Virus record (IMG/VR): IMGVR_UViG_2529292873_000012
Source of the DNA: a virus
Lineage: Duplodnaviria > Heunggongvirae > Uroviricota > Caudoviricetes
DNA: 4,417 bases
Direction: 5' to 3' (one strand)
Below the pieces are notes generated by a model. It was given only the letters and a program-made list of their open reading frames with translations. It did not search any database and was not told the origin of the DNA. Shown in pieces: positions 328 through 4,417 of this stretch. Each line of letters begins with the position of its first letter. Position 1 is the first letter of the stretch. The position numbers and the translations under genes were made by a program.

Positions 328-1322
328 GTGACCGTGAGAGCGCTACTGACCCCTGAAATTGCCCCGCGTATGGGGATCGTCTTGTTCAGACCCGGTTCAG
401 AGCTGATGCCCCTGTTTATGCAGGGGCGTGTCCTGCTGGAGCCTGAGCCGGAACGTTATTCATCTTTCGCCAGTGGTGCCGTTCCGGCAGCATCACAACC
501 GCTGGCGGATGATCCTGCCGTTCGGGCCGTGTTCCGCCATGAGGCGGTGATCCGTCGTGCTGGTGGCGTGGAATGCCTTGAGAGCTGGTTACTTCGTGAA
601 AAAGGCTGCCAGTGGCCTCATTCCGGATGGCACAGCGAGAACATGACCACAATGCGACACGCGCCGGGCGCAATCCGTCTGTGCTGGCACTGCGATAACC
701 TGCTTCGCGATCAGTTCACGGAACGTCTGGAGTCAATGGCAACGGATAACTGTGCCCGCTGGGTGTTGTCCGTAGTCCGTCGTGATCTCGGTTTTGATGA
801 CAGTCACGTTGTGACAATGCCTGAACTGTGCTGGTGGCTGGTTCGTAATGACCTGGCGGATGCCTTACCGGAAAGTGCAGCCCGTAAGGCCCTGAGATTA
901 CCGAAGCCTGTTGTGCCGTCTGTCACCCGGGAGAGTGACCTTGTGCCTTCGGTTCCTGCCACCAGCATTATCCAGGATAAAGCGAAAAAGGTGCTGGCGC
1001 TGAAAGTGGATCCGGAGTCGCCGGAGTCTTTTATGTTACGCCCAAACGTCGCCGCTGGGTTAATGAAAAGTACACGCGCTGGGTTAAGACACAGCCGTGT
1101 GCATGTTGTGGAAAGCCCGCTGATGATCCCCACCACCTGATAGGCCACGGTCAGTGTGGAATGGGTACAAAAGCGCATGACCTTTTTGTGTTGCCTTTGT
1201 GCAGAAAGCATCACGACGAGCTGCATGCGGATACCGTGGCATTTGAAGAGAAGTATGGCTCCCAACTGGAGCTGATATTTCGTTTTATCGATCGCGCGCT
1301 GGCAATTGGCGTACTGGCGTAA
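328..1322 (+). pseudogene. ydfU: YdfU/DUF968-family prophage protein, disrupted: body in frame +1 (328..1140), conserved C-terminal Cys/His motif in frame +3 (981..1322)
   Basis: Frame +1 ORF of 270 aa (CWHCDN motif) ends at TGA 1138-1140. Frame +3, open from 981 after TAA 978-980, encodes …FYVTPKRRRWVNEKYTRWVKTQPCACCGKPADDPHHLIGHGQCGMGTKAHDLFVLPLCRKHHDELHADTVAFEEKYGSQLELIFRFIDRALAIGVLA* ending at TAA 1320-1322, 13 nt before the Q start. The two frames overlap between 981 and 1140. Start is ambiguous (GTG 328, GTG 334 with GAGG at 325-328, or ATG 370). Confidence 0.55.
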
Positions 1323-1335
1323 GTGGAGAACGAGC

Positions 1336-2088
1336 ATGAACCTTGAAGCCTTACCGAAATATTACTCCCCGAAATCTCCAAAACTGAGCGATGACGCACC
1401 GGCGACAGGCTCTGGTGGTTTAACAATTACGGATGTGATGGCTGCGCAGGGGATGGTGCAGTCAAAAGCACCGCTTGGGTTTGCTTTATTCCTGGCAAAA
1501 GTTGGTGTTCAGGATCCTCAGTTTGCGATTGAAGGTCTGCTCAATTACGCGATGGCACTGGATAACCCGACATTGAATAAATTGAGTGAAGAAACCCGGC
1601 TACAGATCATTCCTTACCTTGTGAATTTTGCCTTTGCTGATTGTTCCAGGTCTGCGGCAAGTAAGGCTCGCTGTGAGCATTGTGCTGGTACTGGATTTCA
1701 TAATGTATTGCGCGAGGTGGTGAAACACTCCAGAAGCGGGGAATCTGTTATTAAGGAAGAGTGGGTGAAGGAACTATGTCAGCATTGTCATGGTAAGGGA
1801 GAAGTCAGCACAGCATGCAGAGGGTGCAAGGGTAAAGGTATTGTCCTGGATGAAAAAAGAACCCGGCTTCATGGCACGCCTGTTTATAAGGTTTGTGGGC
1901 GTTGCAATGGAAACCGGTTTAGCCGTTTACCAACCACACTGGCGCGGCTTCATGTCCAGAAGCTGGTACCAGACCTGACGGATTATCAGTGGTACAAAGG
2001 ATATGCAGATGTCATTGATAAACTGGTTACAAAGTGCTGGCAGGAAGAAGCATATGCAGAGATACAATTGAGAAAGGTGACAAGATAA
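1336..2088 (+). CDS. quuQ: Late-gene antitermination protein Q (QuuQ-like), 250 aa
   Basis: ATG at 1336 preceded by GGAG at 1325-1328 with a 7-nt spacer; the protein begins MNLEALPKYYSPKSPKLSDD and carries four CxxC pairs (CEHC, CQHC, CRGC, CGRC); stop TAA 2086-2088. Followed immediately by a pR'-like promoter and terminator. The ORF-track start at 1306 lacks an RBS. Confidence 0.85.
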   Translation: MNLEALPKYYSPKSPKLSDDAPATGSGGLTITDVMAAQGMVQSKAPLGFALFLAKVGVQDPQFAIEGLLNYAMALDNPTLNKLSEETRLQIIPYLVNFAFADCSRSAASKARCEHCAGTGFHNVLREVVKHSRSGESVIKEEWVKELCQHCHGKGEVSTACRGCKGKGIVLDEKRTRLHGTPVYKVCGRCNGNRFSRLPTTLARLHVQKLVPDLTDYQWYKGYADVIDKLVTKCWQEEAYAEIQLRKVTR

Positions 2089-2119
2089 ATGGTTTTCGCC
2101 GAAGATGACGACATGATGC

Positions 2120-2160
2120 TTGCATTTTTCAAAAAATATGGATAAGATTTTCCCAACGAT
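2120..2160 (+). promoter_or_regulatory. Late promoter pR'-like with sigma70-dependent pause element (qut region)
   Basis: -35 TTGCAT (2120-2125), 17-nt spacer, -10 TAAGAT (2143-2148), predicted start near 2155. The initial transcribed sequence AACGATGGG (2155-2163) matches the lambda pR' pause-inducing -10-like element as I recall it. Confidence 0.5.
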
Positions 2161-2195
2161 GGGCTTTGTATACCCGACGTTAAGAAAAAGTAGAA

Positions 2196-2221
2196 AACCC
2201 GCTGATGAGCGGGTTTTGTGC
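2196..2221. terminator. Rho-independent terminator, bidirectional: tR'-like for the short pR' transcript and terminator for the convergent cspF-like gene
   Basis: Stem CCCGCT (2198-2203) / AGCGGG (2208-2213), loop GATG, followed by TTTTGTGCTTT on + and preceded by an A-run (GAAAAAGTAGAAAA) that gives a T-run on the - strand. Confidence 0.7.
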
Positions 2222-2509
2222 TTTAAATGGGGCAATGGTAATGTTGAATCTCATCCCGGGACTCATGTCTGTTAACTTATTATTTAGCTGGTGACTTGGT
2301 TATTTGCCTGATGTTTAAAATGTTTTCTTCCAGTACAATGTCCCTAAACACAATGAGTCTGCTTATTATATTATTAGCAGAGCTATTACGGCCAAAGTAC
2401 AGCATAAGCTTTTAAAGCCAATCAACCAGTCATCAAGACAGACGGGGTTATTCATAAAAACTCTCCATGTGTGATCCGATGGGGCCTGAAATTAAAGCTT
2501 TAATATAGC

Positions 2510-2722
2510 TCATGAAAGGTAAACATTGGCAGCTGAAGGGCCACGCAGACCATTTATCCGGCAAAATTCCACGCGTAATCCGGTGGTAATTTCTTCTGCA
2601 TCGCGGAGATTGAGCGCTGAAACATGAAGCTGGACATCGATACGACCATCGGATGGGGTGATAAGACCCTTGCCGCTTTTGCCGTCAAAGGTTTTGACAA
2701 TTCCTGTCATTTTACGGGACAA
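2510..2722 (-). CDS. cspF: Cold-shock-like protein, CspF/CspH subfamily, 70 aa
   Basis: Translation [27 protein letters not shown]…[21 protein letters not shown] matches the CspF/CspH subfamily from memory. Divergent from the cspB-like gene as in Qin. Predicted start is TTG (2720-2722 on +) with AAGGA 7 nt upstream; an in-frame ATG lies 4 codons downstream. Stop TGA. Confidence 0.85.
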
Positions 2723-2826
2723 AAAAATTCCTTAATACTGATAACTTGGCGCACTATACACACGTTCCTGAAGAAAGCTATAGTTTTTTGATGGGGTTGA
2801 AGATGGCTGGATGTCTAAAATAAACA

Positions 2827-2861
2827 TTGCTTCATATGTTCAACTATGCGTTAATGATTGC
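2827..2861 (+). promoter_or_regulatory. cspB-like promoter (CspA-type, extended -10)
   Basis: -35 TTGCTT (2827-2832), 17-nt spacer, TGcGTTAAT extended -10 (2847-2855), comparable to cspA TTGCAT / TGgCTTAAT. Predicted start near 2862 gives a leader of about 161 nt. Confidence 0.5.
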
Positions 2862-3022
2862 GTCGGTTTGAAGAACAGACGATATACGAAGTAGTTTACT
2901 AAAGCAGTTCTCATTTCAGGTGTTATTCACTTATTCCTTCTTTGAGTCTCTCCAATTAAGTACGAAGTCGTTTCTGTTATGCAAACCATTTATGCCGAAA
3001 GGCTCAAGTTAAGGAATGTAGA
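2862..3022 (+). promoter_or_regulatory. Long cspB 5' leader with cold-box-like and upstream-box elements
   Basis: GGTTTGAAGAACAGAC (2866-2881) resembles the cspA cold box GGTTTGACGTACAGAC; AAAGCAGT is conserved; the GCCGAAAGGC upstream box (2995-3004) precedes the AAGGA SD (3011-3015). Confidence 0.6.
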
Positions 3023-3238
3023 ATGTCAAATAAAATGACTGGTTTAGTAAAATGGTTTAACGCTGATAAAGGTTTCGGCTTTATTTCTCCTGTTGATGGT
3101 AGTAAAGATGTGTTTGTGCATTTTTCTGCGATTCAGAATGATAATTATCGAACCTTATTTGAAGGTCAAAAGGTTACCTTCTCTATAGAGAGTGGTGCTA
3201 AAGGTCCTGCAGCAGCAAATGTCATCATTACTGATTAA
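3023..3238 (+). CDS. cspB: Major cold-shock protein CspB-like, 71 aa
   Basis: [71 protein letters not shown] carries the RNP1/RNP2 motifs (KGFGFI, VFVHF); AAGGA SD 7 nt upstream; stop TAA 3236-3238. Confidence 0.9.
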
Positions 3239-3518
3239 AATTCATCGCTCGTCTGTATACGATAACGAAGAAGGCTGATGCCTGAGTAGAGATACGGACA
3301 GAGTAGTGAATATTGGATCTCTTTAATAAAAAATAAGGAGGTCCAATACATGAAACAATGGCTAGCATATTTGGCAAAATCTTAATCAGGAAAAGTATGC
3401 TAACCATTGTGGTGAAGTGCAGGTTTGCTGCATGAATAGTTTTACAGCAGAAGCTAACTGCTGGCATGGCAAAACAAAGTGCGTAAGTGGATGACTCCCA
3501 CAAAAAGCACCACAATCT

Positions 3519-3545
3519 CAAACCCGCTCAGGCGGGTTTTTTATT
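3519..3545. terminator. Rho-independent terminator (strong on +, weaker on -) between cspB-like and the zinc-ribbon gene
   Basis: Stem CCCGC (3523-3527) / GCGGG (3532-3536), loop TCAG, then TTTTTTATTAT; preceded by CAAA. Nearly identical in stem and 3' context to the terminator at 2196-2221. Confidence 0.7.
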
Positions 3546-3601
3546 ATCTGCTTTAAATATATTATTAAAATATAAAAAATACTTGTTACTAATAAAATCA
3601 A

Positions 3602-3772
3602 TCAGGCTACAGCTTTAAGATTTGTCTGGAATACTTTGTTGCAATGAGGGCAGATCAAAAGGGCACCTTTTTGTACTCTTGAAAAACTGTGTTCTGACTC
3701 TTGGGTGCAGTTTGGGCAGGAACATTTAACGAGATAATTACGGCGTGATTTTGAGTTTTTACGTTCTGACAT
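3602..3772 (-). CDS. ynfU: Small zinc-ribbon protein (YnfU-like), 56 aa
   Basis: MSERKNSKSRRNYLVKCSCPNCTQESEHSFSRVQKGALLICPHCNKVFQTNLKAVA has two CxxC pairs. The ATG at 3770-3772 (- strand) has AGGA 7 nt upstream; the longer track ORF starting at 3823 has no SD. The symbol is from recollection of a 56-aa zinc-binding protein in Qin and is tentative. Confidence 0.55.
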   Translation of the reverse strand: MSERKNSKSRRNYLVKCSCPNCTQESEHSFSRVQKGALLICPHCNKVFQTNLKAVA

Positions 3773-3991
3773 AGGCTTTTCCTGTATAAATGGCCGTATA
3801 CAGTACACTAAATATGAAAACATTTCTCGTATTATTATTTTATATATGACTTTCTTTCAAAATAATTACCCACATTTTTAATGTGTATGTTTTTTTAGCG
3901 CCGTTGAGAACAACGTGTGCTGTCAAAACTACCCCGTAGACTCCGATCTTTTCAAACATATTGCACCATCCGTGTACATCGGGGTGAGGAT

Positions 3992-4207
3992 ATGAAATCA
4001 ATGGATAAGTTAACAACAGGTGTTGCCTATGGCACATCGGCGGGTAATGCTGGTTTCTGGGCATTGCAGTTACTCGATAAAGTAACTCCGTCACAGTGGG
4101 CTGCAATCGGTGTGCTGGGTAGCCTGGTTTTTGGCCTGCTGACGTATCTGACAAATCTTTATTTCAAGATTAAAGAAGACAGGCGTAAGGCTGCGAGAGG
4201 AGAGTAA
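3992..4207 (+). CDS. essQ: Class II holin / pinholin, phage 21 S-like, dual-start motif, 71 aa
   Basis: [71 protein letters not shown] is very close to phage 21 S21 as I recall it. GAGGA SD at 3986-3990; two in-frame starts (ATG 3992 and ATG 4001, Met1 and Met4); stop TAA 4205-4207. The track ORF from 3917 is an unsupported N-terminal extension. Confidence 0.85.
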
Positions 4208-4211
4208 TCCA

Positions 4212-4417
4212 ATGACTCAAGACTATGAACTGGTTGTGAAAGGAGTCCGTAATTTTGAGAATAAAGTTACGGTAACTGTAGCCTTACAGGACAAAGAACG
4301 CTTTGACGGTGAAATTTTTGACCTGGATGTCGCCATGGACCGTGTTGAAGGAGCTGCGCTGGAGTTTTATGAGGCAGCAGCCAGAAGGAGCGTCGGCAAG
4401 TCTCCTGGAAGTAGCAG
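4212..4417 (+). CDS. ydfR: DUF1327/YdfR-like prophage protein, 3'-truncated by the window edge
   Basis: ATG 4212 with AGGAG SD (4197-4201) straddling the holin stop; open frame to the window end encoding MTQDYELVVKGVRNFENKVTVTVALQDKERFDGEIFDLDVAMDRVEGAALEFYEAAARRSVGKSPGSS. Sits directly after the holin, as ydfR does after essQ in Qin. Confidence 0.7.
   Translation, partial: MTQDYELVVKGVRNFENKVTVTVALQDKERFDGEIFDLDVAMDRVEGAALEFYEAAARRSVGKSPGSS

Follow-up and report, generated by a model that had tools for sequence, protein, structure and literature searches.

How does transcription reach the lysis genes of a lambdoid prophage when a block of cold-shock genes in mixed orientation lies between the late promoter and the holin gene? 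The question is raised by a 4,417-nt stretch of Caudoviricetes DNA (IMG/VR record IMGVR_UViG_2529292873_000012; the whole stretch is called the window below), whose features were mapped from open reading frames (ORFs) and from a Pfam scan of the window proteins. The order found was: the gene for the late-gene antiterminator Q, a pR'-like promoter, a pause element, the terminator tR', ynfS (minus strand), cspF (minus), cspB (plus), a second terminator, ynfU (minus) and a holin gene (plus). A previous, sequence-only reading of this DNA had described a cold-shock block between pR'/tR' and the holin, and all of the elements that it described were recovered at or near the positions it gave. We consider it likely that the locus represents the leader of a late operon, loaded with moron cargo, in a Qin-type lambdoid prophage, and that read-through by Q-modified polymerase from pR' to the holin is the best-supported route of holin expression; we infer this route, including the start site at pR', the loading of Q and the passage to the holin, from the comparisons set out here.

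Antiterminator, late promoter and leader RNA

The Q gene (1336–2088, plus strand) encodes a 250-aa protein of the ydfT/quuQ type that matches Pfam Antiterm (PF03589, E = 3.3e-51). Its alignment to the lambda Q structure (PDB 7ubm; E = 2.6e-36) falls into two blocks, which break around a CxxCxGxG zinc-knuckle insert of ~40 residues that is extra in comparison to lambda Q (1696–1815, residues ~121–159; Pfam DnaJ_CXXCXGXG, E = 3.3e-7, below the gathering score). By these alignments, Q is a member of the lambda Q family; it is 97–99% identical to Q of phages mEp460 and SfV and of Shiga toxin 2c (Stx2c) phages.

A pR'-type late promoter was placed at 2120–2148 (plus strand), its -35 hexamer TTGCAT (2120–2125) beginning 32 nt past the Q stop codon (2088) and being separated by a 17-nt spacer from the -10 hexamer TAAGAT (2143–2148). 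The spacer sits where lambda has its Q-binding element, and 11 of its 17 bases are identical to lambda pR'. Downstream of the -10 hexamer lies AACGATGGG (2155–2163, plus strand), a putative -10-like, sigma70-dependent pause element whose nine bases are identical in lambda pR'; TAAGAT-6 nt-AACGATGGG in the window is in register with TAAATT-6 nt-AACGATGGG in lambda. The 9-mer occurs once in the window and was invariant in all 10 loci compared, and the pR' segment as a whole is nearly invariant among mEp460, SfV, the Stx1 phage Lys8385Vzw, Escherichia coli K-12, 2H10 and Tritos. In lambda, sigma70 is held at the -10-like element AACGAT, and the resulting polymerase pause allows Q to load. Carried over from that work, a role in pausing would also fall to AACGATGGG of the window.

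The intrinsic terminator tR' (2194–2221) is found 40 bases on from the pR'/pause segment. It consists of a 10-bp hairpin (2194–2217) with arms AAAACCCGCT-GATG-AGCGGGTTTT, followed by UUUUGUGC, with the U-tract extending to 2221. With transcription starting at 2155, as the sequence suggests, the leader RNA between pR' and tR' would be 67 nt long (2155–2221, plus strand), and its predicted fold comprises two hairpins (−26.3 kcal/mol, z = −5.9). It would correspond to the 6S RNA of lambda and to the precursor of StxS. Term-seq data from K-12 (Adams et al. 2021, PMC7815308, Supplementary file 1) contain a strong 3' end at 1642356(-), classed as 'orphan', which corresponds to window position 2221 by coordinate conversion, in agreement with the printed flanking sequence. 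It scored 103591 in LB at an optical density (OD) of 0.4, 55368 in LB at OD 2.0 and 123305 in M63 (PMC7815308). Since this end is strong in all three conditions, tR' works in uninduced K-12 cells, and constitutive transcription must come from just upstream, as is expected for pR' (PMC7547250). The positions of pR', the pause element and tR' in Qin-type prophages are thus placed precisely and tied to an abundant, unannotated short K-12 RNA.

A further 3' end on the late strand was reported in K-12 at 1642188(-), equivalent to window position 2389, in LB at OD 2.0 only (PMC7815308). Its score (87904 versus 55368 for tR' in the same sample) suggests leakage past tR' or processing in stationary phase. 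The end overlaps the 3' end of ynfS in antisense.

The tail of tR' differs between alleles. The plus-strand U-tract of the window reads UUUUGUGCUUU, with only four U's, and csp-carrying alleles have either this tail or UUUUUGUGCUUU, with five U's (2H10, strain CH4799 and Tritos); their minus-strand tail is UUUUCUACUUUUUC. Phages mEp460, SfV and the Stx1 phage have UUUUUUUGU as their plus tail and a poor tail on the minus strand. In a consensus terminator scan, the tR' hairpin was picked up on the minus strand. These features fit a bidirectional tR' that would also end the convergent cspF-ynfS transcript, although only the plus-strand end is documented in K-12, where Term-seq reported no minus-strand 3' end at tR'.

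The holin gene and the question of a promoter of its own

The first gene of the lysis cassette, essQ (3992–4207, plus strand), encodes an S21-type class II holin of 71 aa (Pfam P21 holin S, Phage_holin_2_1, PF04971, E = 4.4e-34). Its N-terminus, MKSM, is a dual-start motif and the protein is predicted to be a pinholin. The distance from the end of tR' to the holin ATG is 1770 bp, which bears out an earlier estimate of about 1.8 kb.

The csp block would be bypassed if the lysis cassette had a sigma70, sigmaE or sigma32 promoter of its own between the cspB terminator and the holin. The sequence-only reading had itself named a promoter just upstream of the holin (3840–3990) as the finding that would speak against read-through; sequence scans gave no credible promoter there. 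Upstream of the holin, only one plus-strand site resembles a sigma70 promoter: TTTATA-16-AATAAT (9/12, 3839–3866). Matches of this quality are within shuffle expectation (8 sites found versus 7.0 ± 2.7 expected), and this one stands back-to-back with a better promoter-like site on the minus strand, placed to drive ynfU. A looser sigma70 scan gave nothing convincing, and no sigmaE- or sigma32-like motifs were found in 3546–3995 at modest thresholds. Homology to the cassettes of DLP12 (essD), mEp460 and phage D2 starts only at 3966–3980, just ahead of the ribosome-binding site (the DLP12 holin DNA is 86% identical, from 12 nt ahead of the ATG); therefore no promoter travels with the S21-type cassette. 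Because no promoter stands out upstream and cassette homology starts at the ribosome-binding site, read-through from pR' is the most economical route to holin expression.

Several points weigh against this route. The pR' hexamers agree with the consensus at only 7 of 12 positions, which explains why pR' is absent from the list given by a generic promoter scan. The Cappable-seq supplements contain no coordinates matching the K-12 pR' start (~1642422, minus strand), and we infer the 5' end of the leader. The literature on ydfT, quuQ and essQ gave incidental mentions only, none of them on the function of ydfT/quuQ. The DUF968 gene upstream of Q is frameshifted, and the prophage may for that reason be decaying, a possibility weighed below with the distribution of the block. 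Lastly, binding of RpoH and RpoE holoenzymes was assigned to the K-12 essQ/cspB spacer by genomic systematic evolution of ligands by exponential enrichment (SELEX; PMC5493296), and the related DLP12 lysis cassette is reported to be RpoE-regulated as well as Q-controlled (PMC7918800). However, if the published coordinates follow the older K-12 numbering, the SELEX peaks convert to about window 3530–3670, in the AT-rich terminator/ynfU region and not in 3840–3990, so that these sites are weak evidence for a holin-proximal promoter. With the scans and the start of cassette homology as described, we regard a promoter of the cassette's own as improbable.

Distribution of the block and variability of the cargo

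Counted at a coverage of at least 80%, the interval 2089–4207 is present in 1417 of 5426 complete E. coli genomes (about a quarter), and its best match is at least 99% identical in 1252 records. The Q/pR' type of the window occurs in 2413 E. coli genomes, and in 1367 (~57%) it is joined directly to ynfS/cspF, which makes this the more frequent condition for this Q type. The same csp block between the same Q and holin was also found in 2H10, Tritos, HannyBb, PhiR42_1 and PhiR63_1, at 96–99.6% identity. In K-12, the cryptic prophage Qin carries ydfU-ydfT(quuQ)-ynfS-cspF-cspB-ynfU-essQ-ydfR, that is, the same genes in the same order and orientations, as do many RefSeq genomes. The arrangement is thus already known, being annotated in K-12, and transcriptome data have already led to csp genes of one Qin-type phage being described as morons; with roughly one complete E. 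coli genome in four carrying it, and several deposited phage genomes besides, it is ordinary. The sequence-only reading had correctly recognized the likeness to Qin. Its view of the arrangement as unusual does not hold, in light of these frequencies and of antisense cargo in the late-transcript path of lambda and DLP12 (see below).

Phages that share Q, pR' and tR' with the window carry other cargo in the same place: 2.3 kb with two small genes and a DNA methylase gene in mEp460, 1.7 kb with orf47 and a methylase gene in SfV, and 4.9 kb with stx1AB and more in Lys8385Vzw. Homology of the window to these three stops at 2172–2217. Given this 1.7–4.9 kb of DNA in phages of the same Q/pR'/tR' type, cargo between tR' and the holin is the norm, with lambda at the short end of the range. 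It had been supposed that in lambdoid phages the holin gene follows tR' almost directly; this is true of lambda, where 677 bp separate the Q stop from the S start, but not of SfV, mEp460, the Stx1 phage or DLP12.

The boundaries of exchange can be located closely. In comparison to K-12 Qin, there are 120 differences in 1006–2153 (1148 nt, 10.5%) and a single one in 2154–4392 (3333 A/G), and the window upstream of 1006 is not alignable to K-12. This change in the density of differences marks a sharp mosaic joint at 2153/2154, 1–2 nt from the presumed pR' start. Another joint coincides with the tR' hairpin. Upstream of 2154, Q and pR' of K-12 represent another allele (-10 TAAAAT in K-12, TAAGAT in the window); the window Q and pR' allele is 100% identical to that of prophages in the O157:H7 strains 493/89 and LSU61.

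Some relatives have tandem late-promoter regions. HannyBb and PhiR63_1 contain an extra 1.55-kb insert and a second, diverged copy of the late promoter upstream, and tandem regions were located in HannyBb (L007 1295–3060) and in strain M114 (L010 2590–4350). In this type, an intact Q comes first, with a pR'-like copy behind it that has diverged (AATGAT in place of AACGAT, and a different spacer), and the second region has a 57-nt remnant of the Q 3' end, window-type pR'/tR' and the csp block. The ~1.55 kb between them includes a minus-strand ORF of 94 aa with a C-terminal transmembrane helix; no tRNA or Rfam content was found in the HannyBb insert.

The distribution also bears on the possibility that the locus is a relic, in which an inserted block, polar through its terminators and opposing promoters, uncoupled the lysis genes from Q and no functional late transcription remains. 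K-12 Qin is a cryptic prophage, the U-tract of tR' is altered relative to other phages, and the window itself has coding lesions. Its DUF968 (ydfU-like) gene (328–1322, plus strand; identified by Pfam scan and alignment) is split into two ORFs, 328–1140 and 1161–1322, by a 1-nt deletion in an A-run at 1036–1046 relative to strain CH4799, phage 2H10 and K-12, and ydfR near the window end has two further single-base gaps relative to K-12 (4393 and 4402). These gaps may be either real pseudogenization or homopolymer sequencing error. On the other side, Q, pR', the pause element and the holin with its dual start are all intact in the window, and in 2H10, Tritos, HannyBb, PhiR42_1 and PhiR63_1 the Q gene that precedes the block and the holin is likewise intact. 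Tritos (LF82 prophage 3) is moreover reported to form virions (PMC9928086). Loss of late transcription through decay is therefore highly improbable in our view, and read-through from pR' remains the preferred explanation.

Two further plus-strand genes complete the window. The 3' end of a KilA-N gene (3–326) is a fragment without a Pfam match that was identified from the RefSeq annotation of the matching locus. The 5' part of ydfR (DUF1327, 4212–4417; Pfam PF07041, E = 4.6e-34) is the next gene of the late operon, with the same order in K-12.

The cold-shock block and its signals

The sequence-only reading had counted three small genes in alternating orientation. The three, cspF, cspB and ynfU, are indeed present; there is, however, a fourth, ynfS, and the pattern of strands is - - + -. 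The gene ynfS (2366–2455, minus strand) encodes a small protein of 29 aa (Pfam YnfS, PF23697, E = 4.7e-23) that is annotated in K-12 and has been detected by tagging (PMC6001520). It is followed on the window map by cspF (2510–2722, minus strand), which encodes a cold-shock-domain protein (Pfam CSD, E = 5.6e-22; annotated in K-12 and RefSeq) and is antisense to late transcription. In Tritos, a clean deletion of window 2262–2519 (junction at L009 2500/2501) has removed ynfS and the stop and last codons of cspF. The cspF-cspB pair is 77% identical to the chromosomal divergent pair cspH-cspG.

Sense to late transcription, cspB (3023–3238, plus strand) encodes a cold-shock protein (Pfam CSD, E = 9.8e-32) and is preceded by a 5' leader of the cspA thermoregulator type (2862–3022, plus strand; Rfam RF01766). 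The latter was the one significant RNA in an Rfam scan of the window, its match spanning 2862–3254 and the full model (1–428) with 158.8 bits (gathering score, 78; E = 1.2e-42); Trp_leader and P9 matches at 3461–3583 were sub-threshold terminator look-alikes and were discarded. The cspB promoter region is homologous to that of cspA/cspG, and a K-12 cspB reporter construct begins at GTCGGTTTGAAGAACAGAC, which is window position 2862 and the first base of the leader (PMC7815308). In K-12, the leader is subject to Rho-dependent attenuation: RNA 3' ends map to window 2943, Rho terminates transcription in a region at ~3040, and a cspB fusion was more than 2-fold up in rhoR66S (PMC7815308). RNA-seq of Tritos (strain LF82) in LB placed cspB 59-fold and cspI 93-fold above the local prophage background, and these genes were called morons (PMC9928086).

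The third paralogue, cspI, was seen in sense orientation together with ynfQ/ymcF just past the spanin genes in three loci (L001 12471–12683, L002 2456–2668 and L008 7381–7593), and the lysis cassette of those prophages is therefore flanked on both sides by cold-shock genes.

The dominant cspB mRNA 3' end coincides with a stable hairpin (3311–3353, plus strand; 15-bp stem, −18.4 kcal/mol, z = −5.7): the K-12 Term-seq ends 1641224/1641226(-), equivalent to window 3351–3353, are the strongest of the region, with scores of 0.6–2.5 million (PMC7815308). An 11-codon ORF (MKQWLAYLAKS, 3351–3386) with a perfect TAAGGAGGT and an ATG was rejected as a gene because its apparent Shine–Dalgarno sequence is the 3' arm of this 15-bp hairpin; the element at 3311–3386 is probably an RNA-stabilizing structure.

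The second intrinsic terminator lies in the interval between cspB and ynfU (3517–3545), with the hairpin AAACCCGC-TCAG-GCGGGTTT followed by TTTTATTAT on the plus strand. It has a good plus-strand U-tract and is bidirectional; K-12 Term-seq reported a ynfU-strand 3' end at 1641060(+), equivalent to window 3517, and no plus-strand end at this terminator (PMC7815308). Both terminators of the block are thus common to convergent units, in the case of tR' as judged by sequence. The gene ynfU (3602–3772, minus strand), antisense to late transcription, encodes a 56-aa zinc-ribbon protein (Pfam YnfU, PF23499, E = 3.5e-31; annotated in K-12). The best promoter-like site of the window, TTGAAA-18-AATAAT (3831–3860, minus strand, 10/12), is placed to drive it, and is a consensus match of a kind no more numerous in the window than in shuffled sequence.

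Taken together, these features support the earlier description of the block as moron-like. Its GC content is low (0.34–0.46, mostly 0.35–0.40, over 2100–4050, compared with 0.46–0.59 in Q and the genes upstream and 0.45–0.47 in the holin/ydfR region). Promoter and terminator of their own are found for cspB (promoter and leader, 3' ends) and for ynfU (promoter-like site, 3517 end). The block is polymorphic in presence among phages that share its flanks (mEp460, SfV, Lys8385Vzw and other S21-type cassettes).

Comparison with known systems and a proposed scheme for late transcription

The window resembles lambda in the family of Q, the -10 region, the spacing, AACGATGGG in register, a terminated short leader RNA and a lysis cassette in the same orientation downstream. 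Between tR' and the holin it has about 1.75 kb of cargo, compared with the 677 bp given above for all of the DNA from Q stop to S start in lambda; further differences are an S21-type holin in place of lambda S and the zinc-knuckle insert of Q. The lambda pR' leader is ~194 nt long, compared to the 67 nt proposed here. Lambda also has an antisense moron in the path of the late transcript: bor, which lies between Rz and cos on the opposite strand. DLP12 (quuD-nmpC-essD) has an antisense moron, the porin gene nmpC, between Q and an S21-type holin; it differs in its Q family (quuD, 127 aa) and in having one large cargo gene, interrupted by IS5. In Stx phages, pR' is constitutive, tR' terminates in lysogeny and self-regulated cargo is read through by Q on induction (PMC7547250). 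As in the window, their cargo is inserted past pR'/tR' and ahead of the lysis genes, and Lys8385Vzw has the same Q/pR'/tR'; their toxin-gene cargo, in contrast, is in sense orientation.

On these grounds the following scheme may be proposed. In the lysogen, pR' would fire constitutively, and the polymerase would pause at AACGAT and stop at tR' to give the 67-nt RNA. The cargo units would rely on their own signals, insulated by the two bidirectional terminators: the cspF-ynfS unit would converge on tR', cspB would be expressed from a cold-responsive promoter and leader, with an mRNA ending at the 3' hairpin, and ynfU would be transcribed from its own promoter to the second terminator. Q, supplied by the adjacent upstream gene, would load on the paused pR' complex and convert it into a terminator-resistant polymerase. 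This polymerase would cross tR', ynfS and cspF in antisense, the Rho-sensitive cspB leader and cspB in sense, and then the terminator at 3517–3545 and ynfU in antisense, to arrive at the S21-type holin and the remaining late genes. Lambda-type Q complexes read through both intrinsic and Rho-dependent terminators. Such a crossing is favoured because of this property, and because the same block is found in virion-forming Tritos and in other deposited phage genomes; the property also argues against an uncoupling of the lysis genes by the inserted block.

Does the orientation of the cargo have a function of its own? The sequence-only reading had suggested a coupling of lysis timing to the cargo genes, with possible collision or antisense effects. 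Worked out in full, late transcription would silence cspF, ynfS and ynfU through antisense RNA or collision and boost cspB, and the opposing promoters and the cold-regulated leader would tune holin transcription and lysis timing. The geometry lends itself to this, with three antisense genes and one sense gene in the late path together with a Rho-dependent, temperature-sensitive leader, and the block is very well conserved (see the 1252 genomes at ≥99% identity above). However, we found no data for any such effect, and antisense cargo is common without a known timing role, as with bor in lambda, nmpC in DLP12 and the minus-strand ORF of the HannyBb insert. Virion formation is reported even for Tritos (PMC9928086), in which ynfS and the end of cspF are deleted. 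The promoters of cspF and ynfU appear weak, and no minus-strand 3' end was detected at tR' in K-12. The suggestion is speculative and, to our mind, rather unlikely.

Implications

PR' and tR' of Stx phages are 258 nt apart, and the longer StxS precursor is processed to an Hfq-binding small RNA (PMC7547250). By analogy, the 67-nt RNA of Qin-type prophages could be a StxS-like trans-acting RNA, or the cspB leader and the opposing cargo promoters could make late transcription to the holin temperature-dependent; we hold these ideas to be long shots. If gating by the leader did occur, lysis timing would be tuned in the cold.

As a discovery the arrangement matters little, since the textbook model of Stx phages already has Q driving read-through of cargo located between pR'/tR' and the lysis cassette. 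The details gained, namely the placement of pR', the pause element and tR', the mosaic joints and the terminators, are useful for testing whether the orientation of cargo affects late transcription.

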